A stretch of 64,000 bases of DNA from a virus. Location: IMG/VR virus record IMGVR_UViG_3300029319_000007. The stretch is one strand, 5' to 3'. Positions 1 to 9,989 of the stretch are shown piece after piece (position 1 is the stretch's first letter; each line of letters starts with the position of its first letter). Position numbers and translations under genes: made by a program. The notes under the pieces are model-generated. The model was not told the DNA's origin, ran no database searches, and saw only the letters and a list, made by a program, of their open reading frames with translations.

Positions 1-150
1 TCTTTTGAACTTGTCAGCAAACCCCTTCATCTGCCTGTCTTTTTTCATCTTTGCAATGACTTTATTAACTTTCATTGAAAGGTCTTTCATTCTGCCTTCT
101 TGCGCTTGCATTTCAGACAATATCTGTGCCATTGATTGATTATATCTCAT
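1..150 (-). CDS. Hypothetical protein, 5' part only (MRYNQSMAQILSEMQAQEG...), runs off the window edge
   Basis: ATG at 150-148 with GGAGAG SD; open to position 1; TATAAATA upstream. Confidence 0.65.
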   Translation of the reverse strand, partial: MRYNQSMAQILSEMQAQEGRMKDLSMKVNKVIAKMKKDRQMKGFADKFKR

Positions 151-167
151 TTTTCTCTCCATTGTAC

Positions 168-175
168 TATTTATA
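168..175 (-). promoter_or_regulatory. T4-type late (gp55) promoter TATAAATA
   Basis: Exact consensus in the gap upstream of the ORF starting at 150. Confidence 0.75.
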
Positions 176-532
176 CTAATTGTCTACTTTAGCGCCTGCA
201 CGCCATTGATAACATGACCAATATCTTGCTTTGTATTTGGGTCCTGGGTTATCACAGTTATGTCTGGCACGAAAGTTTGCTCGTCTACCAGGATCATCTC
301 TTTTGATTTCCATGTTTGGATCACCAAATCCTAACTTGATTACATTACCTTTTTCATTCTTTACATAAACATAAAACTTCTTTTTACCATCACTAGAACG
401 AGTTGGGTTATTTAATTCTACTTTTTTGCCTTGATACTCTGCTTCTGTGATTTCTAAGTCTTCATATAAATCACAGGACTCACAATAGTCATCTATGCGT
501 TGTACCTCTTGTAATGATTTTATTCTACTCAT
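176..532 (-). CDS. Conserved marine T4-like phage hypothetical protein
   Basis: 118-aa ORF coupled to the upstream gene; KKFYVYV...FGDP...RRANFRARHNC...ARYWSC motif. Confidence 0.7.
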   Translation of the reverse strand: MSRIKSLQEVQRIDDYCESCDLYEDLEITEAEYQGKKVELNNPTRSSDGKKKFYVYVKNEKGNVIKLGFGDPNMEIKRDDPGRRANFRARHNCDNPGPKYKARYWSCYQWRAGAKVDN

Positions 533-2058
533 TAGTCTTTACCTGCTGCCCTAACTTTTGCTGCTAAGTCTGAATCTGCTTTACCCCAAGTACCGCTTGA
601 CTTAGTGACAAAACTATTAACTCTTGCCATTGCCCATTGTTGTTGAGAAGCACCAGGTCTGTGACCACCACGCCATGCTGCCATACCTCTGTTATATACT
701 TTCATTAATATACCATAAGGCATACCTGTTTTCTTCGCTTTGTTTCTAACACCTGTGTTCTCACTTACAACATCATCTATCATTTCAGAAACAACTTTGT
801 CTAAATGTTCTCTCCACTCTGTGCCGTATTCATCTCTATATTTGTCTATTGTTTCTTGACTTTCTGACCATGATTTAATATCTTGTATTTCTTTTACTTC
901 TTCTTCACCATACATTTTATCAAACTTCTTTGTAAATGTAGATGGTTTTGTTTTTGCACCTTTATCACCAGGATGTTGTCCTGATTTAGGATATGCGTCT
1001 GGATCATCATGATGTTTGCCGCCAAATCTTTTAAATGATCTGTCTCTTGTTTTTTTATCTTTCTTAGATAATGTCTTATAATATTTTTTAGGTTGTGTGC
1101 CTTTTCTTTTCTTTATATCAGGATCTTGTGCGACTGCTCTCTCATTTATTTCATCTTCGAATGATGAAAAAGATTTTAGTTGATCACTATTTTTTTGTAA
1201 TACTAGTTTCTTTTTGTCAACACTTTCTGATTGTAATTCACTATTGATTTGAGGTGCAGGATTTACTTCATCTAACCATGCTTTTTCTACACCACCATCT
1301 TCCATTTCATACTGAATATAATTAGGTCCTCTTTTAATCACTTTACCCACATTACCATTTTTTGTATTTTCAACAATATCACCCATATTAAATAAATCAT
1401 TATTGTGATAATGTTCTCTTATGTTTCGTAAATTCTCATCATCTGGTGCCATCGCCTCATTCACTCCCATACCTTTTTTTAAGTCTTTAAATAATTTCAT
1501 AGCATCTTTCTCCTTAGTGCCTGTTATTAAACCTTGTTTGAAACTTGTAAAGTCATTAGCAGAAGCATATGCTCTCATCTTACTAGCACTCATACCTTTT
1601 GCACCAGCAGCGTCAGCGTCTCTTTCGCCTGCACTCACAACATTTACTGAATCAAAGTTATAATCTTTCTTATTATATTTGTTGATTAGTGTTTTAAATT
1701 CACTAACTCTATCACTACCTGCAACCATATATACATCTGTGTATCTACTATCAAATCTATTTTTCAATATTTCCATAAATGTTCTTTCACGACCTGTTGC
1801 AGTTCTAATGTCAATACCTCGTGGATATACTTTTTTTAAGTAATCTACTTTTTGTTTAGCAGTCAGAGGATTTTTATTTTTATCTTGACTTGCACTTACA
1901 TATAGCACAGGTAAACCTTTTACCCTTTTTGCCATAGTAATAATTCTGTCTATGAGTTTTTGATGACCAATAGTAGGTGGGTTCAAACGACCAAATGCAA
2001 AAACAACTGGTTGTTTTCTACCTACTACTTTCTTCGTTAACTCACTAAACTTTTTCAT
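532..2058 (-). CDS. HIGH-class cytidylyl/nucleotidyltransferase-like protein with long C-terminal extension
   Basis: FGRLNPPTIGH (HxGH), VAGSDRV and MSASKMR (KMSKS-like) motifs. Confidence 0.8.
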   Translation of the reverse strand: MKKFSELTKKVVGRKQPVVFAFGRLNPPTIGHQKLIDRIITMAKRVKGLPVLYVSASQDKNKNPLTAKQKVDYLKKVYPRGIDIRTATGRERTFMEILKNRFDSRYTDVYMVAGSDRVSEFKTLINKYNKKDYNFDSVNVVSAGERDADAAGAKGMSASKMRAYASANDFTSFKQGLITGTKEKDAMKLFKDLKKGMGVNEAMAPDDENLRNIREHYHNNDLFNMGDIVENTKNGNVGKVIKRGPNYIQYEMEDGGVEKAWLDEVNPAPQINSELQSESVDKKKLVLQKNSDQLKSFSSFEDEINERAVAQDPDIKKRKGTQPKKYYKTLSKKDKKTRDRSFKRFGGKHHDDPDAYPKSGQHPGDKGAKTKPSTFTKKFDKMYGEEEVKEIQDIKSWSESQETIDKYRDEYGTEWREHLDKVVSEMIDDVVSENTGVRNKAKKTGMPYGILMKVYNRGMAAWRGGHRPGASQQQWAMARVNSFVTKSSGTWGKADSDLAAKVRAAGKD

Positions 2059-2345
2059 TTGTATTTGTCACTTTTCTTTTTTGTTCCGTCTGCTCTAGGA
2101 ATTAATCCTTTTGCTTTTAGATGTGCTTTGTCTGTAAAACCTGCCTTACCTGCTTTGTATCTTTTCATTGCGTCAGCAGTATTAGGTGCGTTTTCAGCAA
2201 ACTCTCTAAAACTTTCTTTTATCTTTGCGTCTTTAATAGGTACACAATTAGGCACCATTCTATCGCCTTTCTTTTTCATACCTACTTGTTTATAACCCGA
2301 CCAACATGCCTCGGTGATAGGATCATAAAAATCTTCATCACTCAT
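2055..2345 (-). CDS. Hypothetical protein with ACWxGYKQVGMKKK...PNCVP module
   Basis: Start revised from 2381 to 2345 (MSDEDF), which has a GGAG SD and overlaps the upstream stop (ATGA). Confidence 0.65.
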   Translation of the reverse strand: MSDEDFYDPITEACWSGYKQVGMKKKGDRMVPNCVPIKDAKIKESFREFAENAPNTADAMKRYKAGKAGFTDKAHLKAKGLIPRADGTKKKSDKYK

Positions 2346-3013
2346 TTTGCTCTCCTTTTTTCTAACTCTTTTGTCATCCATGTTTTCGCTGTATAGTTCG
2401 TTATAGGTTGTTTAACTAGTTTACGAACCATCTTATAAGATTTTTCTAAGATATCTTCATCTGCTTTATTGTTGTCAATTACAATAAAGTTTTTTTGACC
2501 AAACAATCTCTGTAATTTACCCATGTTAGATTGTATTTGTGAATGACTTTTTTTCACAATATCCACTGGTACTGTTCTACTTCTAGCAGCATTTCTTGCT
2601 AATGCAACATCTAAACTTGTATTGACAAATATCATATAGGTATCATAACCTAATCTTTTCAATGCTGCAAGCCCTTTTTCTATCTTTTGTACATCTCTAG
2701 CGGTACTGTCAATAATTAAACCTAGTCTACCCATAATATATAAATCTAGTCTTTTTGCTGTCAAACTTTTTGATCTTGCTCTTATCTCATCTCTTTCTTT
2801 TTCCTCATCAGGTGGCATATCTAAAGATAGTCCTGCTTTCTTTAATGCTTTTTCAAATGCTGTATCTGAATTAACATTCTTCAATCCTAGACCGCCTGTT
2901 ATTTTTGAAGTGACATAAGTCTTACCTGAACCAGGACCACCGGCAAGAAAGAATGCCTTGAAGATACCTGGGTCATATAAACCTTCTTTTATAATAAATC
3001 TTTCTAGTTTCAT
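2342..3013 (-). CDS. P-loop kinase (zeta-toxin/AAA_33/polynucleotide-kinase-like)
   Basis: Walker A GGPGSGKT, LIIDST, lid-like ALARNAARSR. Confidence 0.8.
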   Translation of the reverse strand: MKLERFIIKEGLYDPGIFKAFFLAGGPGSGKTYVTSKITGGLGLKNVNSDTAFEKALKKAGLSLDMPPDEEKERDEIRARSKSLTAKRLDLYIMGRLGLIIDSTARDVQKIEKGLAALKRLGYDTYMIFVNTSLDVALARNAARSRTVPVDIVKKSHSQIQSNMGKLQRLFGQKNFIVIDNNKADEDILEKSYKMVRKLVKQPITNYTAKTWMTKELEKRRAK

Positions 3014-4239
3014 TAACCTTTATCCCAATTCTTTGCAACAGTAAAGTTTTGAAGACTAAACTCCATTCTATCTACAAGTTTTACTGCCTTACCTTTTTTA
3101 TCTACCGCAACATAACCTTCAGGATTTGTTGCCTGTAAACCATCAGAGGTTGTTTTAAATGTACCTATAGATTTTGCTTTATTTAACTTATCAATTAATA
3201 CTTTTTTTGCTGTCTGTAATGTTTTATAAGTTGCAACAGCAAAGTAAATACTTTCAGTATGATTATCAATAAATTTTAAACCTGTATCTTGTATTGTTTT
3301 ATATTTGTCTTTTGCTTTATCTGTCTTAACACCATCTATTTCTTTTTGCGTTCTCTCTTTATAAAACTCTCTAAATTTATTTGCAGTTTCTTTTGTACTT
3401 GGTAAATCAGTTGCTGCTCGTATGAAAGAGTTAAGATATGTTTTTAGTTGCACACCTACAGACAAAGTGTTTTTTTGTGTTGACATTATATTTAACATTT
3501 CTTTTGCTTTCTTTAATGAACCTGACGCCATGTTGATAGTCTTTTGTAGTGATTGACTTTCACCTATTGTCATCAACGCATTACCTGATACATCTTTATA
3601 ACTTGCGTCATCAAACCATACCTTTGATGTTTTTCTTAATTTAGATACATCAGCACCAAAACTTGTTTTTAGTTTTTCAAAACTTGCACCTTTATATGTT
3701 GTATGAAAAACAATACCTAGTTTACTAGTGTCTATCTTTTTACCAAAAGGTGTATTTTCTGGCACCATATAAACTATTGTGTTAGGTTGAAAAGAAATCA
3801 TTTGTTCAGATTTACCTGTTGGGTCTTTGTATGTTGTTTTCTTTTTTGTAGAACTAGTGTACATTAAATCACCTTGTAGTATCTGTTTCATACCTATACC
3901 AGAAAGATATTGTAAACACTCTCTTAATATATTTGCAACAGCACCATCATGATTTTTTCTTATATCTGCAATATTATAATTTACTTTAGGTGTTTTGTTA
4001 AATACAGATTTAGTACCTACAAAAAATTTACCATTTTCAGGACTAGGTCCACAAACTATCGCAGGTGCACCATCCCACTTTACAGAAACATTTACTTTTT
4101 TTTCAGAATGACCTGATAACATTTCGTTTAGTGATTCTAAAAAGGCAATTGCATTTTTACCACCCTCATGACCATTATTAATAATGTCATCTTCTAAATG
4201 TTCTAGATGTGTATTCTTATCTTCGTTTAATAGTTCCAT
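3013..4239 (-). CDS. Conserved phage protein with ATP-dependent ligase-like (covalent nucleotidyltransferase) motifs
   Basis: Motif I KWDG, III LQGDLMY, IIIa IVFH, IV EGYVA, V VKLV in canonical order. Confidence 0.6.
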   Translation of the reverse strand: MELLNEDKNTHLEHLEDDIINNGHEGGKNAIAFLESLNEMLSGHSEKKVNVSVKWDGAPAIVCGPSPENGKFFVGTKSVFNKTPKVNYNIADIRKNHDGAVANILRECLQYLSGIGMKQILQGDLMYTSSTKKKTTYKDPTGKSEQMISFQPNTIVYMVPENTPFGKKIDTSKLGIVFHTTYKGASFEKLKTSFGADVSKLRKTSKVWFDDASYKDVSGNALMTIGESQSLQKTINMASGSLKKAKEMLNIMSTQKNTLSVGVQLKTYLNSFIRAATDLPSTKETANKFREFYKERTQKEIDGVKTDKAKDKYKTIQDTGLKFIDNHTESIYFAVATYKTLQTAKKVLIDKLNKAKSIGTFKTTSDGLQATNPEGYVAVDKKGKAVKLVDRMEFSLQNFTVAKNWDKG

Positions 4240-5594
4240 TATTTTACTTTTATTCCTGGTGTGTTAATGTATAGTGATTTACCTGCCCAACCACCTGCTG
4301 TTCTTGTTCTTGCTGTGATTGGTATTGAAACATCTATATCTAATAATTTGTATTTAAAAGATAAAGTGAATTGTTGTGACTTACCATCATAGGTATATTT
4401 TATTGAACCATAATTTCTTGCTTTTTTGTTTAATAGAAATTCTTTGTATTCTTCATTACTTGCAACATCTTTTATTGTAGCACTTGTTTCTGTACCAACT
4501 AAAAGTTTATAAGGACATGGTGTACTATCAGCACTATCAGGATACATGTATAATCCTATTGTGTTTAAAAAGTACATTAAATTTTTTGATGATTTTAAAT
4601 AAGAACCAAAACTATCAATTAAACTATTTCTATAACCATAATAGAAATCATCTTTATAAAAGTTTAATTTATCTTTTTTAAATTCTTTTGCCAATGTAGC
4701 GAATGATCTTTTACTAATACTCTCACTAGGTTTTTCTTTTTCGATTTTAAATTTACTTAATGCCTTCTTTGCGTTTTTACCTTTTACAGTTTTTGCTGTA
4801 TCATTCCATGCTTTATCCATTAGAGAAACAACAGCATTATATTGTTTTTTGTCTTCTAACTTTTTATAGAAACTATGAATTGCAGTATTGAATTTAGGTG
4901 TGACATCTTTACCTACTGTCGCTTTATTAGAATAACCAATATAGTCTGTCTTGCCTATTTGTAAAATAATATCACTAGGATTATTTTTATGAATACCACC
5001 AGGTTTACCACGAGCAGTCCAGAAATACTTTGTTGGTTTTTTAGGCAAATCTTTTCTAACTGCTTTTGCCATTTGATAACCTATGTTGATATCTGCCTCA
5101 GGTGTTTCATCTTTGTCTATCATTTGTTTTAAAAAATCAAAAGTTATTTCTTCCTCTGTACCTTTGACTACCATATGAATACCTGTGCCACCAGTCTTAC
5201 CACCTATGTCATTTAAAAATGTTTCAACATCAGTAAATTTAGGATACTTTGCAAAATACAAAGAACAAAATTCATTTACATTTGAGGATGCTGTAGAGTT
5301 TTTTCTAGTCTTCATGCCATAGTGACCTATGACATCTTTCATTCTGAGATTTACTGAATATGGTGTTTGTTTTTCACCATCAAATATTTGAAACGAAAAC
5401 TTACCTTTATCACTTAGAGATGTGCCTTTAGTTTTATCGACACTCTTAAACTTTAATTCTTTTTTAGGTTTGACTTCTTTTTTAACAGATTTCTCTACTT
5501 CAGGCGTGACAGTATAGAAAGGATTAAACTGCCCCTTTTGTTGATAATCTGGCGATATAGTTAATTCTCGTATGTAGTCTTTAAACTTTAACAT
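4239..5594 (-). CDS. Putative PD-(D/E)xK restriction-endonuclease-fold protein
   Basis: NVNEF helix, then PSDII...GYSNK; start revised to 5594 (MLKFKDYIRE) downstream of a GGAG SD. Confidence 0.5.
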   Translation of the reverse strand: MLKFKDYIRELTISPDYQQKGQFNPFYTVTPEVEKSVKKEVKPKKELKFKSVDKTKGTSLSDKGKFSFQIFDGEKQTPYSVNLRMKDVIGHYGMKTRKNSTASSNVNEFCSLYFAKYPKFTDVETFLNDIGGKTGGTGIHMVVKGTEEEITFDFLKQMIDKDETPEADINIGYQMAKAVRKDLPKKPTKYFWTARGKPGGIHKNNPSDIILQIGKTDYIGYSNKATVGKDVTPKFNTAIHSFYKKLEDKKQYNAVVSLMDKAWNDTAKTVKGKNAKKALSKFKIEKEKPSESISKRSFATLAKEFKKDKLNFYKDDFYYGYRNSLIDSFGSYLKSSKNLMYFLNTIGLYMYPDSADSTPCPYKLLVGTETSATIKDVASNEEYKEFLLNKKARNYGSIKYTYDGKSQQFTLSFKYKLLDIDVSIPITARTRTAGGWAGKSLYINTPGIKVK

Positions 5595-5605
5595 CATTAC
5601 TCCCA

Positions 5606-5634
5606 TTTATATACTAAAATAACTATTTAGTCAA
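5606..5634 (-). promoter_or_regulatory. Composite promoter for the 1-5594 operon: sigma70-like TTGACT-N17-TATAAA overlapping late-like CTAAATA and TATAAAT
   Basis: Motifs read directly in the intergenic gap. Confidence 0.5.
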
Positions 5635-5642
5635 GGAGAAAC

Positions 5643-5915
5643 TTAGGTTATACAAAGAAAATTAGGTATACCCCCATTTACTAACCAGACTTGTTTTTTA
5701 TTGTGAAAATCTGCAAATTCTTTTGCTTGACCTTTAACATCAAATGTGCTAATAACCTTAGTATTATCTTTAAAATGTTCTAATACTTGAAATCTGTACT
5801 TGCGTCCTTTCTTGACTGTTTCGACTTCGTAAACTAATTTACTCCTCGAACTTGAAGTCTTGGAACTTTTTGTACTTTTCTTCTGGCGTTTCTTTTTCAA
5901 GGTTGTGTTCGACAT
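5643..5915 (-). CDS. Hypothetical basic protein overlapping the 3' end of gp41
   Basis: 90-aa ORF with a GAGGAG SD. Confidence 0.6.
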   Translation of the reverse strand: MSNTTLKKKRQKKSTKSSKTSSSRSKLVYEVETVKKGRKYRFQVLEHFKDNTKVISTFDVKGQAKEFADFHNKKQVWLVNGGIPNFLCIT

Positions 5916-7242
5916 ATTTCTCCTCTTCTGGTTGTATTAGATTCTGTGCTGCTTGTTCAATATCAAACAGTTTCATTCTTGCACGATCAACACCAATAAT
6001 AAACTTACGATTAAGTGTTGGGTCATTATATCTGTTCTTCAATTGTTTGACAAGCATTTGCCCGGCACGCTCTAATTCTTCACTTGATATTAAGGCAAAC
6101 ATAAAATCTGCTGTCGCAGGTAAACCAAAACTTTCTGATGTATCTTCAAGACCAATGTCACTTGACACGAAACCTGTTCTTGTAGTTTGTGTTGCAGTCA
6201 CAATAGGTAAATCTAATTCAACAGCAAGACCTCTCATTTCTTCGGCAATCGCCTTGATGTAAGTATAACTATTGACATTACTACCTGGTCTAAATCTTGC
6301 ACTTGCACATATATTAATATAATCAACAAAGATAATATCAGGTTTAAATGTTCGTTTAAGTGCTAGTTCGTTTACTAATGTTCTTATATGTCCTGTGTGA
6401 GCAGAAGCAGTAGGATATTCTTTTATGATCAAAGTACCTGTTGTTTTACTTTGTAAGTTTGTAATCTTATCATTGAATAGTTTTCTATTCAACATGTGTA
6501 AATCTTCCATAGAAATATTAAGTAAGTTTGCGTCTATTCTTTCGGCAATTCTTTCTTCTGCCATTTCTAAAGTGATATACAAAACATTTTTATTTTGAGA
6601 TAATGCCGCTGCCGCTTGATGACACATGAATAAAGTTTTACCTACACCGGTACCTGCAAGGGCAACATTCAAAGTTTTTGTAGGCAAACCACCTTTTGTG
6701 ACTTTGTTGAAAAAGTCTAGATCAAAAGGTATTCTTGTTTCTCTTTTATGATAGAAATCAAATCGTTTTTCTATATCAAGTAAATAATCATGACCTACAG
6801 CACGATCAAAACTAACAGATAATGCGTCACGCAATATCTCAGGTATCGCTTCAGGTGAATGTTGTTTATCTTTACCATCTAATATTTGAATGCCGTTCAT
6901 GACAGCATTATGAATGGCACGATCTTTACAAAACTTTTCTGTAGTGTTAACTAACCAGTCTAAGTCTATTTCTTCTTTATTAAGAGTAGAAACTAAATCT
7001 ACAATCTTTTTAAATTCATCTTCATTTAGGTCTTTGCGTTTGCCTAAATCTATTTGTAGAGTTTCTTTTGTAGGGCGTTTATTATATTGTTGAATAAACT
7101 TTTGTATTTCAGAAAATACGATACGCTCAGTACGATCATCAAAATACTCAGGTTTAAGAAAGGGTAAAACCTTTCGTGTGTAATCTTCGTTATGTAGAAG
7201 ATTCTTTAGTGTCGTCTTCTCTATTCTTTCCGCTGTCGCCAT
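5839..7242 (-). CDS. gp41: Replicative DnaB-like helicase
   Basis: AGTGVGKT Walker A, ITLEMAEE, VDYINI, TSESFGLPATAD, QLKNRY. Confidence 0.97.
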   Translation of the reverse strand: MATAERIEKTTLKNLLHNEDYTRKVLPFLKPEYFDDRTERIVFSEIQKFIQQYNKRPTKETLQIDLGKRKDLNEDEFKKIVDLVSTLNKEEIDLDWLVNTTEKFCKDRAIHNAVMNGIQILDGKDKQHSPEAIPEILRDALSVSFDRAVGHDYLLDIEKRFDFYHKRETRIPFDLDFFNKVTKGGLPTKTLNVALAGTGVGKTLFMCHQAAAALSQNKNVLYITLEMAEERIAERIDANLLNISMEDLHMLNRKLFNDKITNLQSKTTGTLIIKEYPTASAHTGHIRTLVNELALKRTFKPDIIFVDYINICASARFRPGSNVNSYTYIKAIAEEMRGLAVELDLPIVTATQTTRTGFVSSDIGLEDTSESFGLPATADFMFALISSEELERAGQMLVKQLKNRYNDPTLNRKFIIGVDRARMKLFDIEQAAQNLIQPEEEKYVEHNLEKETPEEKYKKFQDFKFEE

Positions 7243-7492
7243 TGTTCTCCTTCTCTACTTCGATTGCTAAAATATCACCCATTACATTTATAAAGTCACT
7301 AGAATCTGTATCACACTCGTTAGGATTCTCATGCACATTATATTCAAATTTAAGTCTTAACTTTTCATCTTCTTCAATAGGCGAAACTTTTCCATATGTG
7401 TATATGACATCTTTATATGTACCTTCTTCTATCTTAAATCCTGTTAATTGATTTTTAGGATTTTCTTGATAACTATACTTCGGGATTGCCAT
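7190..7492 (-). CDS. Conserved hypothetical protein at the T4 gp40 position
   Basis: 100-aa ORF between uvsX and gp41; synteny only. Confidence 0.6.
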
Positions 7493-8498
7493 AACTATAT
7501 TCTTTTGTTGCTGCTTCGTCTATTTGTTTTAGTATATCGTCAGTAAAGTATTTCTCTGGATCAGCGTAAATACTTTTTGCATATTGTTTTGTACCATCTG
7601 GTAGTTCTATTCTTGTTGAAACTTGTTTGAAGATACCATACTTAGTTGCTAAGTCTAGTAAACCATAATATTTATCTAAACCAGTATCGTATCGTAATCT
7701 AACATCTACCATCATATTCTCTTTTGATAATCTACTCTTTTGAGTTTTACAATGTATAATATTACCTACAACTTCTGTGCCTTCTTTATCTTTTTTCTTA
7801 GATAGATAAATGATTGTTGAAGCAGCATATTTCAAACCAGAACCGCCACCCATTTCTTTTGTAGGCATATATGCACCCACAACATCATAAGTATGATTTG
7901 TTATAACCATTGGCACTTTTGCACGACCTAGTTTTAAAGTTAACACTCTAAACGCTGCCTTCAATACTTGTGCTCTAGTCATATCTCTAGTTTCTTTACC
8001 GTCTGCTGTATCTTCAACTTCTTTAGTTGTTGATAACATACCTAAACTATCTAAGACTAATAATAATGGTTTTCTATCTGCTTCATTTTGTTCCATATAT
8101 TTGTCTAGTACAGTTAAGGATTGTGTTCTAAATTCTTGTACTGTTGTCACAGGCATGATAATCATTCTTTCACTATCAATACCTCTGTCTTCAATTAATT
8201 TTTTTGTTAATGCACTTTCACTCTCAAAATAGATAACACCTGCGTCAGGATTATTATCTAGAAAATGTTTTACCATACCTAATACAAAGAAAGTTTTACC
8301 TGTCGCACTTTCACCTGCAAGAGCAGTTATTTTATTTGAAGGTATGCCGCCATGAATACTTCCTGATAACAAAGCATTAAACATGTATGAACCTGTATTA
8401 ATAAATGTATCGACATCACCTGCCTCGACACCTTCACTCACTAGTGAAGCATATTCATTTCCTGTTTCTTTAATTATCTGTTTTAGAAAGTCCGGCAT
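7473..8498 (-). CDS. uvsX: RecA-like recombinase UvsX
   Basis: [29 protein letters not shown]; probable start at MPDFL. Confidence 0.96.
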
Positions 8499-8682
8499 TA
8501 TCATTCTCCTTTTGTTGTTTCTGTATCATGTATTGTAATTTTTCATACAGTTTACCTACAGTTGTACATTCGTCAGCACGAATACTACCTCTTTGTAAAG
8601 ACGCTTGTATTATTTTTATCATTGTGCCATAGTCTGCAACTGTCATGTTTTGTTGATCTAGTTTTTCTAATAGTTCTTTCAT
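8470..8682 (-). CDS. Hypothetical protein (70 aa)
   Basis: GAGGAG SD; fills the gap between the methyltransferase and uvsX. Confidence 0.65.
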
Positions 8683-8705
8683 TATATCACACTCCTCTCA
8701 TAAAA

Positions 8706-9989
8706 TCAAGCAAAAAATTCATCTATTGTTGTTTTCTTAAATAAATCAATATCTTCGTTAGAAAAATACCATATATTTTCTATGAATATATTATTCATAA
8801 AGTCTTTTTTCTCTTGTTCGTCTTTGAACAATTTATCACTTTTAGGTCGTTGCATAATTCTCATGCCTATCTGACCTTTGAATCTAGTATCGTATTTACT
8901 ACTATACTTATCACATATTTCATCACCAGTTCTATATCTTTTACCTTTTATTTGTGGATCCATAATATTAATAAGTGTGTGTTTTGATCTTTTAATACAT
9001 TGATCACTTACAGGTAAAAAGAAATTATCACGCCATTTATCATACTCATTAAACTTATGCCATGATTGATCTTCTTCATGTTCGCCACCTTTATTATATT
9101 CTTCAGTAGAAAAATAAGGAGGACTTGTAAATGAACAATCTACATTATTAATATCGTCCCAAGGCAAATCTTCTGCACCACATCTATATATCGTGACTTT
9201 CTTAGACGCATTAATAGTAAATACATTTCTGTCTTCTTTAATTATAGGATTATTATTACCTAATATTCTTTCATACTCATCAACTTGTTTCATATACATT
9301 GCAAAAGTATTAGGATTAGGATCACAACCAATATATTCTTTTGCATTTGATGTATAAAAACCTGCAAGTCTATCGCCCCAACCACAACTTGTATCTAAAA
9401 CTTTATTTGCGTTTGTTAAGTCATATATTGCCTTTGCAACAACTGGTTTAAATTGTGTTGCAATATATGTGCCTAATCTAAATGCACTCATGTAAACTTT
9501 CTCATCTAATATTTTCTTTTCATTAATGCCTCGCCAGATAGGACCAAAACAACGCCATATATCTTTTGCATTGCCATTTTGCCATACATCTACAGGTGAT
9601 CGAAAACCATAACTACTACAATTTAATCTTAACTCTTGCATAAAGTAATTTGAAACTGTACTATATGCACTTGTGCCTTCTATTAAACCTAAACCATATT
9701 CATCAAAAGAATATTTGTAATCATCATATTTTTCAAATACAGTTTTTTCTATTTGTTCTTTTGATTTTATATTCTTACTTGTGTCAAAAGATTTTAAATC
9801 AAGAAAGTTAGTAATCATATCTTGTTTAGATATAAACTTAAATGGAAAAGGTGGGCGATTAACAGAGATATATTCTGCTAAGTCTTCTCTAAATTTTTCT
9901 TTGCCATATTTTTCTGTGACATATTGAAACTGTTCTTTATTCATAACAGGCAACTTAACATCATTTAAATAAGGTGTAAAATCTATCAT
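8706..9989 (-). CDS. DNA amino-methyltransferase (N4-C/N6-A)
   Basis: SAM motif VLDTSCGWG before catalytic FTSPPYF. Confidence 0.85.
   Translation of the reverse strand: MIDFTPYLNDVKLPVMNKEQFQYVTEKYGKEKFREDLAEYISVNRPPFPFKFISKQDMITNFLDLKSFDTSKNIKSKEQIEKTVFEKYDDYKYSFDEYGLGLIEGTSAYSTVSNYFMQELRLNCSSYGFRSPVDVWQNGNAKDIWRCFGPIWRGINEKKILDEKVYMSAFRLGTYIATQFKPVVAKAIYDLTNANKVLDTSCGWGDRLAGFYTSNAKEYIGCDPNPNTFAMYMKQVDEYERILGNNNPIIKEDRNVFTINASKKVTIYRCGAEDLPWDDINNVDCSFTSPPYFSTEEYNKGGEHEEDQSWHKFNEYDKWRDNFFLPVSDQCIKRSKHTLINIMDPQIKGKRYRTGDEICDKYSSKYDTRFKGQIGMRIMQRPKSDKLFKDEQEKKDFMNNIFIENIWYFSNEDIDLFKKTTIDEFFA

Follow-up and report, generated by a model that had tools for sequence, protein, structure and literature searches.

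Few viruses of the sea are more abundant than cyanomyoviruses and pelagimyophages, and their lack of a recognisable DNA ligase has been on record since 2010 or earlier (PMC2984593). Homologues of g30 were not found in cyanomyoviruses by Clokie and colleagues, for whom distant, unrecognised homologues were one possibility; the host ligase could also serve instead, and host-DNA nucleases of the denA/denB type are lacking as well (PMC2984593). A second system that bears on the present work is the protein cargo of the T4 head. The products of T4 ipII and ipIII start with MKTYQEFIAE and that of ipI with MKTFKEF (T4 record). In such leaders, targeting depends on residues 4 and 7 and processing on residues 8 and 10, the gp21 protease cleaves after L/I-x-E, and the targeting sequence has been proposed to let T4-like phages load varied proteins (PMC9026906). 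Here, we describe a block of six genes, A to F, at positions 176–5634 of a viral DNA of 64,000 nucleotides (IMG/VR record IMGVR_UViG_3300029319_000007; the whole stretch analysed is called the window), in which gene B, a member of the DUF6267 family, is predicted to have the fold of a polynucleotide ligase. The reading that we tentatively favour, with a probability of roughly 0.45, is that the block represents a conserved late cassette of marine T4-like phages (Kyanoviridae, including Pelagibacter myophages) that would provide a head-packaged kit for healing and sealing nucleic-acid ends.

Gene B (3013..4239, minus strand) is a full-length member of the Pfam family DUF6267 (PF19782, E 6.6e-130), its sole Pfam match. 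This family is large, with 2615 clusters at 50% identity in a family search at E<=0.001, its Pfam label is 'unknown function', and a full-text literature search turned up no paper naming it. None of the ligase models PF01068, PF01653, PF09414 and PF09511 matches B, and its matches in the protein atlas are unnamed viral clusters only. In an alignment of 70 sequences with 34–47% identity to B, the K, D and G of K54-W-D56-G57, corresponding to motif I (KxDG), are invariant, and D124, F150/Y157, E374-G375 and K387 vary little or not at all and follow one another in the canonical order of motifs III, IIIa, IV and V, the residues being assigned to these motifs by pattern and spacing. The invariant positions include H11, H14, K54, D56, G57, D124, Y157, H179, E374, G375, K387 and R391, the first two of which belong to an H11-L-E-H14 motif at the N-terminus. 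The ligase motifs that the initial annotation, made from the sequence alone, had pointed out in this gene thus prove to be conserved.

The structural model points in the same direction. Built with AlphaFold2 (AF2) on the 70-sequence alignment, the model of B has a predicted local distance difference test score (pLDDT) of 92.4 and takes the ligase fold that had been expected of it: in a second look with VIA, 50 of the 50 listed entries were polynucleotide (RNA/DNA) ligases, headed by NgrRnl (Z 8.4, root-mean-square deviation 3.8, 184 aa) and TbREL1 (Z 8.0, 192 aa) and including Trl1 (Z 7.5), T4 Rnl1 (7.3), T4 Rnl2 (7.0) and Lig1 (6.2). A wide, Foldseek-independent search of 48,161 chains likewise placed RNA ligases on top (NgrRnl, Z 7.8; Trl1, 7.6; T4 Rnl1, 6.9; T4 Rnl2, 6.8) and many DNA ligases next. 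The only extra modules of the model are helices at the N-terminus and a helical insert of about 130 residues (225–353) between the aromatic motif (IIIa) and EG (IV). The ligase-type fold and motifs of the predicted protein can be regarded as secure, and B, as judged from its model and its conserved residues, belongs to the ligase/capping nucleotidyltransferase superfamily as a highly diverged member, outside every curated ligase family.

What accompanies this protein? Gene C (2342..3013, minus strand), which had been called a P-loop kinase, has the P-loop GGPGSGKT and matches the Pfam family AAA_33 with 50.2 bits (cut-off 27); Zeta_toxin, with 47.2 bits, is also over its cut-off, so that the family assignment is broad. 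It matches the polynucleotide kinase (PNK) family phrog_505 (E 7e-7), and the closest solved sequence, which we take as a lead only, is L-seryl-tRNA(Sec) kinase (PSTK, tRNA-dependent; E 4.5e-4). By these matches, C belongs to the PNK-containing AAA_33 family and is a predicted kinase of the AAA_33, zeta-toxin or PSTK kind; its domain starts with a conserved GLYDPG. Gene E (532–2058, minus strand) begins with a domain of residues 1–200 (1459..2058) whose Pfam match, CTP_transf_like, is borderline (21.2 bits, cut-off 21) and whose match to phrog_3041, 'cytidyltransferase', is strong (E 2.8e-119). T29-I-G31-H32 and S157...R162 are invariant among 20 relatives, as H/T-x-G-H in the case of the former, and KNPL and SASKMR are also present. 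The initial annotation had named an HxGH nucleotidyltransferase here and had mentioned nicotinamide mononucleotide adenylyltransferases (NMNATs); the HIGH-type motifs stand, with TIGH in the window copy, and an NMNAT identity is not supported, its models scoring E far below their cut-offs (see below). The (H/T)xGH and SxxxxR motifs mark the whole HIGH superfamily and not NMNAT alone. The kinase domain of C and the HIGH domain of E are both secure as sequence assignments.

These genes are bound to B by position. In the window, the first 8 kb of which is about 79% identical in nucleotide sequence to Pelagibacter phage HTVC008M (Kyanoviridae) over 45% of the query, the gene order is as in HTVC008M: DNA polymerase, UvsX, gp41 helicase and then the six-gene block. 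Linkage was followed in a sample of 80 IMG/VR loci with DUF6267, the open reading frames (ORFs) of which were searched with the six proteins. Where at least 2.5 kb lies downstream of B (54 loci), E is present in 51, C in 26, F in 24 and the D module in 21, with no match to the linked genes on the opposite strand; where at least 5 kb is available, E is found in 36 of 36 loci and C in 19. The linkage of B and E holds across B identities down to 41%. Moreover, the genes are found fused to one another, as C-B, as E-B in both orders, as F-B and as E-C in both orders. The co-occurrence in relatives that the initial annotation had looked to is borne out, and the B-E(-C) linkage is tight, which we consider secure. 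In cyanophage isolates, the order is gp41, sometimes MazG, the gene in the slot upstream of B, DUF6267, 'cytidyltransferase' and, further on, primase.

The slot upstream of B is occupied in the window by gene A (4239..5597, minus strand). It has no Pfam match and about 480 homologues in marine metagenomes. Its AF2 model (pLDDT 86) has a small N-terminal beta domain (residues about 13–98), and the best Foldseek match of the model is HinP1I (probability 0.69, E 0.046). In VIA, HinP1I (Z 6.1, 200 aa) and MspI (Z 5.8, 194 aa) are the sole chains with Z>=5, modest scores, and are followed by Dna2, AddAB, a Cas4-family protein, I-Ssp6803I, Hjc and RecE. Across 56 homologues, E112, P210-S211-D212 and S226-N227-K228 do not vary; in the candidate active site, placed by pattern, the position expected to be D, E, Q or N is a Ser (S226), neither acid nor amide. 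MspI and HinP1I also use N/Q-x-K variants of the active site. The nuclease-type fold of the model is secure, and the earlier description of A as PD-(D/E)xK-like agrees with this fold and with the candidate motif; the closest folds put A with the MspI/HinP1I kind.

Is A a regular member of the cassette? Adjacency of A and B was found again in a 138-kb contig. HTVC008M has an unrelated 352-residue gene in the slot, the slot gene of S-SZBM1 is unrelated too, and neither tblastn nor hhalign detected similarity of A to the slot genes HTVC008M gp126 and S-SZBM1_142. We had first read A as not conserved, and this was softened when four cyanophages proved to have a slot protein of 465–507 residues with the same NP[SA]DI...G-x-S-x-K signature. 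Among the 53 viral contigs in which the gene upstream of B is complete, 11 have the signature NP[SA]D...GxSxK in the slot; other ORFs essentially lack it. Matches of A in BFVD are uncharacterised cyanophage proteins (E down to 4e-9), one of which can be assigned by protein length to the slot gene of S-RIM44 (499 aa), not of S-RIM8. Since the signature is found in 11 of 53 slots and unrelated genes occur elsewhere, the A-type nuclease is, by its signature, a recurrent and not a constant partner of B, present in about a fifth of related contigs. As a separate observation, an 80-kb JGI contig of a different phage type (positions 1–9986) carries an 825-residue DUF6267 fusion and a 661-residue A homologue 6 kb apart, among small ORFs (DUF5856, DUF5661) that directly precede terminase and portal, a head-morphogenesis neighbourhood.

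Several lines of evidence relate the cassette to the phage head. B, C, E and F of relatives start with peptides resembling MK[TS]F..[FY][LI].E, such as MQSFKQYLSE, MKQFKQIIQE, MKTFNKFLTE and MKTFKQYE, that is, leaders of about 10 residues with an aromatic residue at position 4, hydrophobic residues at 7–8 and Glu at 10, then Ala or Gly. A loose form of this pattern is found in 32 of 76 B, 7 of 21 C, 12 of 47 E and 7 of 9 C-E fusions, as against 44 of 655 other ORFs (38% vs 6.7%); the latter include UvsX and further ORFs of the same block without assigned function. In the window, the starts of A (MLKFKDYIRE) and C (MKLERFIIKE, ahead of the kinase domain) fit. A gp21-type protease (PF03420, over cut-off) is encoded in five of five DUF6267 phages, HTVC008M and four others. 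The T4-type late promoter TATAAATA is present at 15 of 51 starts of slot genes, compared with 2.2% of random windows, and the 500 bases that precede B hold 33 copies of it. Finally, a homologue of E is found in the virion proteomes of S-SZBM1, S-CREM2, S-SCSM1, S-CBWM1 and one estuarine cyanophage. The authors of these proteomes call it NMNAT-like (PMC9602691, PMC10665884) and warn that abundant proteins may have been carried over; in S-SZBM1 virions, a neighbouring protein with the D module, S-SZBM1_139, was detected with it (PMC9146016). No report of A, B or C in virions was found among published virion proteomes. Leaders, late promoters and virion proteomics, the strongest further evidence and one that the initial annotation had overlooked, together point to packaged, injected enzymes, and from these signals the unit is probably late-expressed and head-packaged. 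The capsid-targeting-like leaders on B, C, E and F of relatives, the pile-up of TATAAATA before B and the link to the virion homologues of E are new in this analysis.

In the E-C fusions, I-x-E still precedes the kinase domain, which would suit polyprotein processing. In long E-containing ORFs of ten related loci, internal leader-like peptides (MRFKDYIKE, MKSFHTFRE) were observed directly preceding a conserved SIIDIPR..Y module. By their sequence, the long E fusions suggest polyproteins of leader-plus-domain units.

An outline of the process that we favour is as follows. The core of the cassette would be DUF6267, an ATP-dependent ligase-type adenylyltransferase with an Rnl2/Rnl5-like domain, a helical insert and the HLEH motif but no oligonucleotide-binding (OB) domain; downstream of it would stand the HIGH nucleotidyltransferase, joined in about half of the relatives by the PNK/zeta-like kinase, and upstream, in the window and in about a fifth of the relatives, the MspI/HinP1I-like nuclease. 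Going by fold and motifs, B may form a Lys54-AMP adduct as ligases do, and A may cut DNA by PD-(D/E)xK chemistry. By analogy with the T4 Pnkp/Rnl pair or fungal Trl1, C would phosphorylate 5'-OH ends and B would seal breaks with 5'-PO4 and 3'-OH ends, while A could supply or exploit the breaks. The leader-tagged proteins would be made late and loaded into the prohead, where the gp21-type protease would cut behind (I/L)-x-E; having entered the cell with the DNA, they could act ahead of all phage gene expression. The weakest step concerns E, which might make an adenylylated or nucleotidylated phosphate compound, possibly a nucleotide donor or an activated end for B. What in the initial annotation was a single anti-defence pathway of all six genes is narrowed by these results: ligase fold, nuclease and co-occurrence stand, whereas the one six-gene pathway, the anti-defence role and the function given to the HIGH enzyme are not supported by them, as the A-type nuclease precedes B in about a fifth of contigs only, an unrelated gene taking its place in HTVC008M, and a PADLOC search gave no match of note, only a weak match of the kinase to VakA. 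We infer an anti-defence role at most.

Several points weigh against healing and sealing by a packaged kit. The Z values of B, at about 8, are only middling by VIA's own calibration; Foldseek of B against the PDB gave no match at E<=0.001, the highest probabilities going to DNA ligases; and no sequence link between B and ligases was detected, phmmer and the 70-sequence profile finding nothing relevant in the PDB and hhalign giving a probability of 0.13 against T4 Rnl2. Most ligases need an OB domain and motif VI for step 1, and the model of B has neither, the protein ending about 20 residues past motif V. Family-model searches of the six genes found no domain for healing of the 3' end (phosphatase or cyclic phosphodiesterase), the kinase occurs in only about half of loci, and to our knowledge a HIGH nucleotidyltransferase takes part in no known heal-and-seal system. 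Jumbo phages with a normal ligase but without DUF6267 have E homologues too. Nor would the fusions prove a shared pathway if they were polyprotein cargo that is cut at the retained I-x-E sites. As to packaging, the leaders of B, E and F are weak or degenerate in the window, and S-SZBM1_141, a homologue in the DUF6267 family, does not appear among the proteins read from the text of the S-SZBM1 virion table. The start of UvsX (7473–8504) also fits the loose capsid-targeting pattern, as do homologues in related contigs (MSDFLKDIIKE); this is probably coincidence, a likely false positive, and calls for caution in leader-based calls.

In a fuller form of the favoured reading, marine T4-like phages would fill the capsid with a working enzyme kit (restriction-like nuclease, new OB-less ligase, kinase and HIGH nucleotidyltransferase) and inject it along with the DNA; the enzymes would be synthesised late, leader-tagged, singly or as polyproteins, and trimmed by the prohead protease. 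We consider this form doubtful as a whole. If it were true, cutting, healing and sealing, or the synthesis of a nucleotide cofactor, could begin before any phage gene is read, and DUF6267 would represent a new clade of ligases and, at the same time, the ligase that has long been missing in cyanomyoviruses.

How else could the presence of a ligase fold in these phages be explained? DUF6267 might simply be the missing replicative or repair DNA ligase, a stand-in for T4 gp30 that, within the cell, seals nicks in Okazaki fragments and recombination intermediates, its neighbours being accessory and the leaders irrelevant. Its location agrees with this, as the DUF6267 gene belongs to the replication block, with gp41 helicase on one side and gp61 primase on the other in S-CAM4, P-SSM7 and S-SZBM1, while in HTVC008M and the window it follows closely downstream of gp41. 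So does the distribution of ligases: PF01068, PF01653 and PF09414 were not found in six complete genomes with DUF6267, namely HTVC008M, S-CAM4, P-SSM7, S-SZBM1 and two IMG/VR records that are 100% complete by CheckV, and in the same search T4, 121Q and Deifobo were found to have a PF01068 ligase and no DUF6267. PF09511 was silent in the first five of the six and in the control genomes too, and since this model matched no control genome its absence is uninformative. The closest folds to B, those of NgrRnl, TbREL1 and T4 Rnl2, belong to nick-sealing ligases, and the g30 homologue missing from cyanomyoviruses has been allowed to be a distant one that escaped recognition (PMC2984593). Yet the complementary distribution rests on nine genomes only, and the host ligase could serve (PMC2984593). 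Replication genes belong to the early or middle class, whereas in relatives the stretch just ahead of B is rich in T4-type late promoters; capsid-targeting-like leaders stand on 32 of 76 B homologues; and the fusions with the HIGH nucleotidyltransferase and the kinase are left unexplained. We regard a DUF6267 that is simply the replicative or repair ligase as unlikely.

Another possibility is that no common pathway exists and that unrelated cargo has been grouped by late expression and packaging, as a counterpart of the T4 internal-protein/Alt locus, with the fusions being polyproteins cut by the prohead protease and A acting alone, for example in degrading host or rival DNA. The variable slot upstream of B, with its nuclease signature in some contigs and unrelated genes elsewhere, would be expected of such a locus, as would the different gene order in HTVC008M (B-D-C-E-F), the I-x-E retained before the kinase domain in E-C fusions and the same leader on many neighbouring ORFs without assigned function. 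The targeting sequence has indeed been proposed for the loading of varied proteins (PMC9026906), and cyanomyoviruses lack denA/denB-type nucleases for host DNA (PMC2984593). Against this, B and E are linked in 51 of 54 loci, and in all 36 with at least 5 kb, at B identities down to 41%, far more tightly than other cargo, and nuclease, kinase and ligase are the enzyme types of known cut, heal and seal chemistry. We give grouping without a common pathway less of a chance than a replicative ligase.

The last possibility is that E and C form a nucleotide-cofactor pathway like NadR (NMNAT plus ribosylnicotinamide kinase) or coenzyme A (CoA) synthase (phosphopantetheine adenylyltransferase, PPAT, plus kinase), making NAD+ or another dinucleotide, with B as an AMP-transferring enzyme that uses or recycles the cofactor, for example against depletion early in infection. 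The best named matches of E are indeed NadR/NadM-type NMNAT and PPAT models, its T-x-G-H and KNPL are common to PPAT and archaeal NMNAT, the domain order of the E-C fusions (about 430 residues) is that of NadR, and NMNAT-like is the label chosen by the authors of the virion proteomes (PMC9602691, PMC10665884). When the profile of the E domain was compared with the PDB, the matches were weak only (MJ0951, PPAT, archaeal NMNAT and NadR; E 0.0025–0.07). E scores 15.6 bits against a cut-off of 341 with TIGR01526 and 15.2 against 127 with PRK01153; its relatives reach at most 31 bits with NMNAT models, and the NMNAT and PPAT scores of 15–31 bits, against cut-offs of 103–341, cover the first 60 or so residues only. 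Membership of E/C in NadR was rejected for these low scores and for the different kinase family. With a kinase that is AAA_33/zeta/PSTK-like and resembles the AAA_28 of NadR in the P-loop only (E 0.01–0.04), with no Nampt, Nudix or phosphoribosyl pyrophosphate (PRPP)-type partner in the unit and with no place for a ligase-fold enzyme in known NAD salvage, a cofactor pathway is quite as improbable as unrelated cargo.

All genes of the window, including the six ORFs of the block, are on the minus strand, and the tight coupling claimed for the six holds at five of five junctions, which overlap as TAATG at A/B, B/C and E/F and as ATGA at C/D and D/E; this operon structure is secure. Ahead of A, at 5598..5634 (minus strand), a promoter-like stretch consists of TTGACT-17-TATAAA overlapping the late-type TATAAATG, followed by the Shine-Dalgarno sequence GGGAG. 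The composite promoter claimed earlier is there as a pattern, and as a pattern only: the consensus promoter scan did not list the TTGACT-17-TATAAA stretch, and the scan for sigma-70 promoters and terminators is uninformative for this region, which has fewer sites than its shuffles. As the ATG at 5606 falls within the promoter-like stretch and the public record begins at residue 5, A probably starts at 5597 or 5594 and not at this listed ATG. A perfect TATAAATA at 168..175 (minus strand), directly past the stop codon of F, is by its position the element that closes the six-gene unit and opens the next one. Exact TATAAATA sites number seven in the window (168–175, 18006, 41127, 45721, 53433, 54845 and 59227), below the shuffle mean of 11.6, and all are on the minus, coding strand, a bias that fits real T4-type late promoters.

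Gene D (2055..2345, minus strand) encodes a small protein with a CWxGY...VPNCVP module and has PHROG matches to segments of nine families without a named function; of the listed ORF, 2055–2381, the 13th codon (2345), behind AGGAG, is most likely the start. In relatives, the module lies within larger proteins of the same block, and it lies within the virion-detected S-SZBM1_139 (PMC9146016). HTVC008M (3012–8657), with its order B-D-C-E-F, differs from the window (176–5606) and has a longer D of 170 residues. The C-terminal half of E (532..1458, minus strand) comprises a lysine-rich linker and accessory modules, including DUF5824 (residues 440–491, bases 586–741, E 7.3e-20), and these modules are separate proteins in some relatives. 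Gene F (176..532, minus strand) encodes a small Cys-containing protein (phrog_7595, E 1.1e-11), which in some phages is fused to DUF6267 or to E (fusion P0325). Homologues of E that stand alone were seen in phages 121Q, Deifobo and Phosso, in 121Q overlapping a DNA methyltransferase gene, and lone homologues in jumbo phages often lie beside a Dam methylase. Two neighbouring ORFs of the window may be mentioned. One, of 90 residues (5643–5915), has a very basic, Ser/Lys-rich N-terminus and no family match, shares 77 bases with the 3' end of the gp41 helicase gene and lies just upstream of the promoter-like stretch of A; the other, of 427 residues (8706–9989), adjoins the polymerase and has a weak match to N6/N4 DNA methylases (16.6 bits, below cut-off).

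As a protein with a predicted ligase fold, DUF6267 becomes a concrete candidate to fill the ligase gap of these phages, one that is linked with a kinase as well as a nucleotidyltransferase and bears marks of head packaging; should B prove active, it would be a small ligase without an OB domain that might find practical use. Puzzling matches in virion proteomes, of the kind 'cytidylyltransferase/NMNAT in virions', become a testable model of injected enzymes.

How, then, does this unit compare with known systems? The Rnl2/Rnl5-type ligases (NgrRnl, 5COT/6VT1; TbREL1, 1XDN; T4 Rnl2, 1S68/2HVQ) have an adenylyltransferase fold in common with the model of B, at Z 8.4, 8.0 and 7.0 over 173–192 aligned residues, and the same order of KxDG, D, aromatic, EG and K, with similar spacing once the insert is removed. 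Unlike them, B has no detectable sequence or profile similarity to ligases and no OB or other C-terminal domain, and it has the 130-residue helical insert between IIIa and IV and the invariant N-terminal H-L-E-H; its relatives, moreover, bear a capsid-targeting-like leader, and its role as a ligase is predicted from the model. T4 Pnkp with Rnl1, and Trl1 of fungi and plants, pair a kinase with a ligase to heal and seal broken tRNA; in the unit, likewise, a P-loop kinase of the PNK-containing AAA_33 family is coupled to a ligase-fold enzyme, and in some phages fused to it, and Trl1 and T4 Rnl1 are themselves among the structural matches of B (Z 7.5 and 7.3). Unlike these, the unit lacks a 3'-phosphatase or cyclic phosphodiesterase, has the kinase in about half of loci and has a HIGH nucleotidyltransferase as the most constant partner of its ligase-fold gene.

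The other members and the mode of delivery have counterparts elsewhere. In NadR and CoA synthase, as in the E-C relatives, a P-loop kinase comes after a (T/H)xGH nucleotidyltransferase or is joined to it, and the NadR, NMNAT and PPAT models are the weak best matches of E; unlike NadR, E scores far under the family cut-offs, C is of the AAA_33/zeta/PSTK kind rather than AAA_28, and E travels with a ligase-fold gene. MspI and HinP1I, type IIP restriction endonucleases, are the sole structural matches with Z>=5 to residues of about 100–452 of A, the putative active site of which would show their Asp ... x-x-Lys pattern with a non-acidic middle residue, whereas A is twice as long, has the extra N-terminal beta domain, has no cognate cytosine methyltransferase alongside, and is phage-encoded with a capsid-targeting-like leader. 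With IPI-III and Alt of T4, the cassette has in common the leader pattern (MKTYQEFIAE / MKTFKEF), a gp21-type protease, the enrichment of late promoters and, in E, one member found in virions; the T4 cargo consists of small basic proteins and an ADP-ribosyltransferase, whereas that of the cassette, its packaging being read from sequence, would consist of predicted enzymes of nucleic acids and nucleotides.

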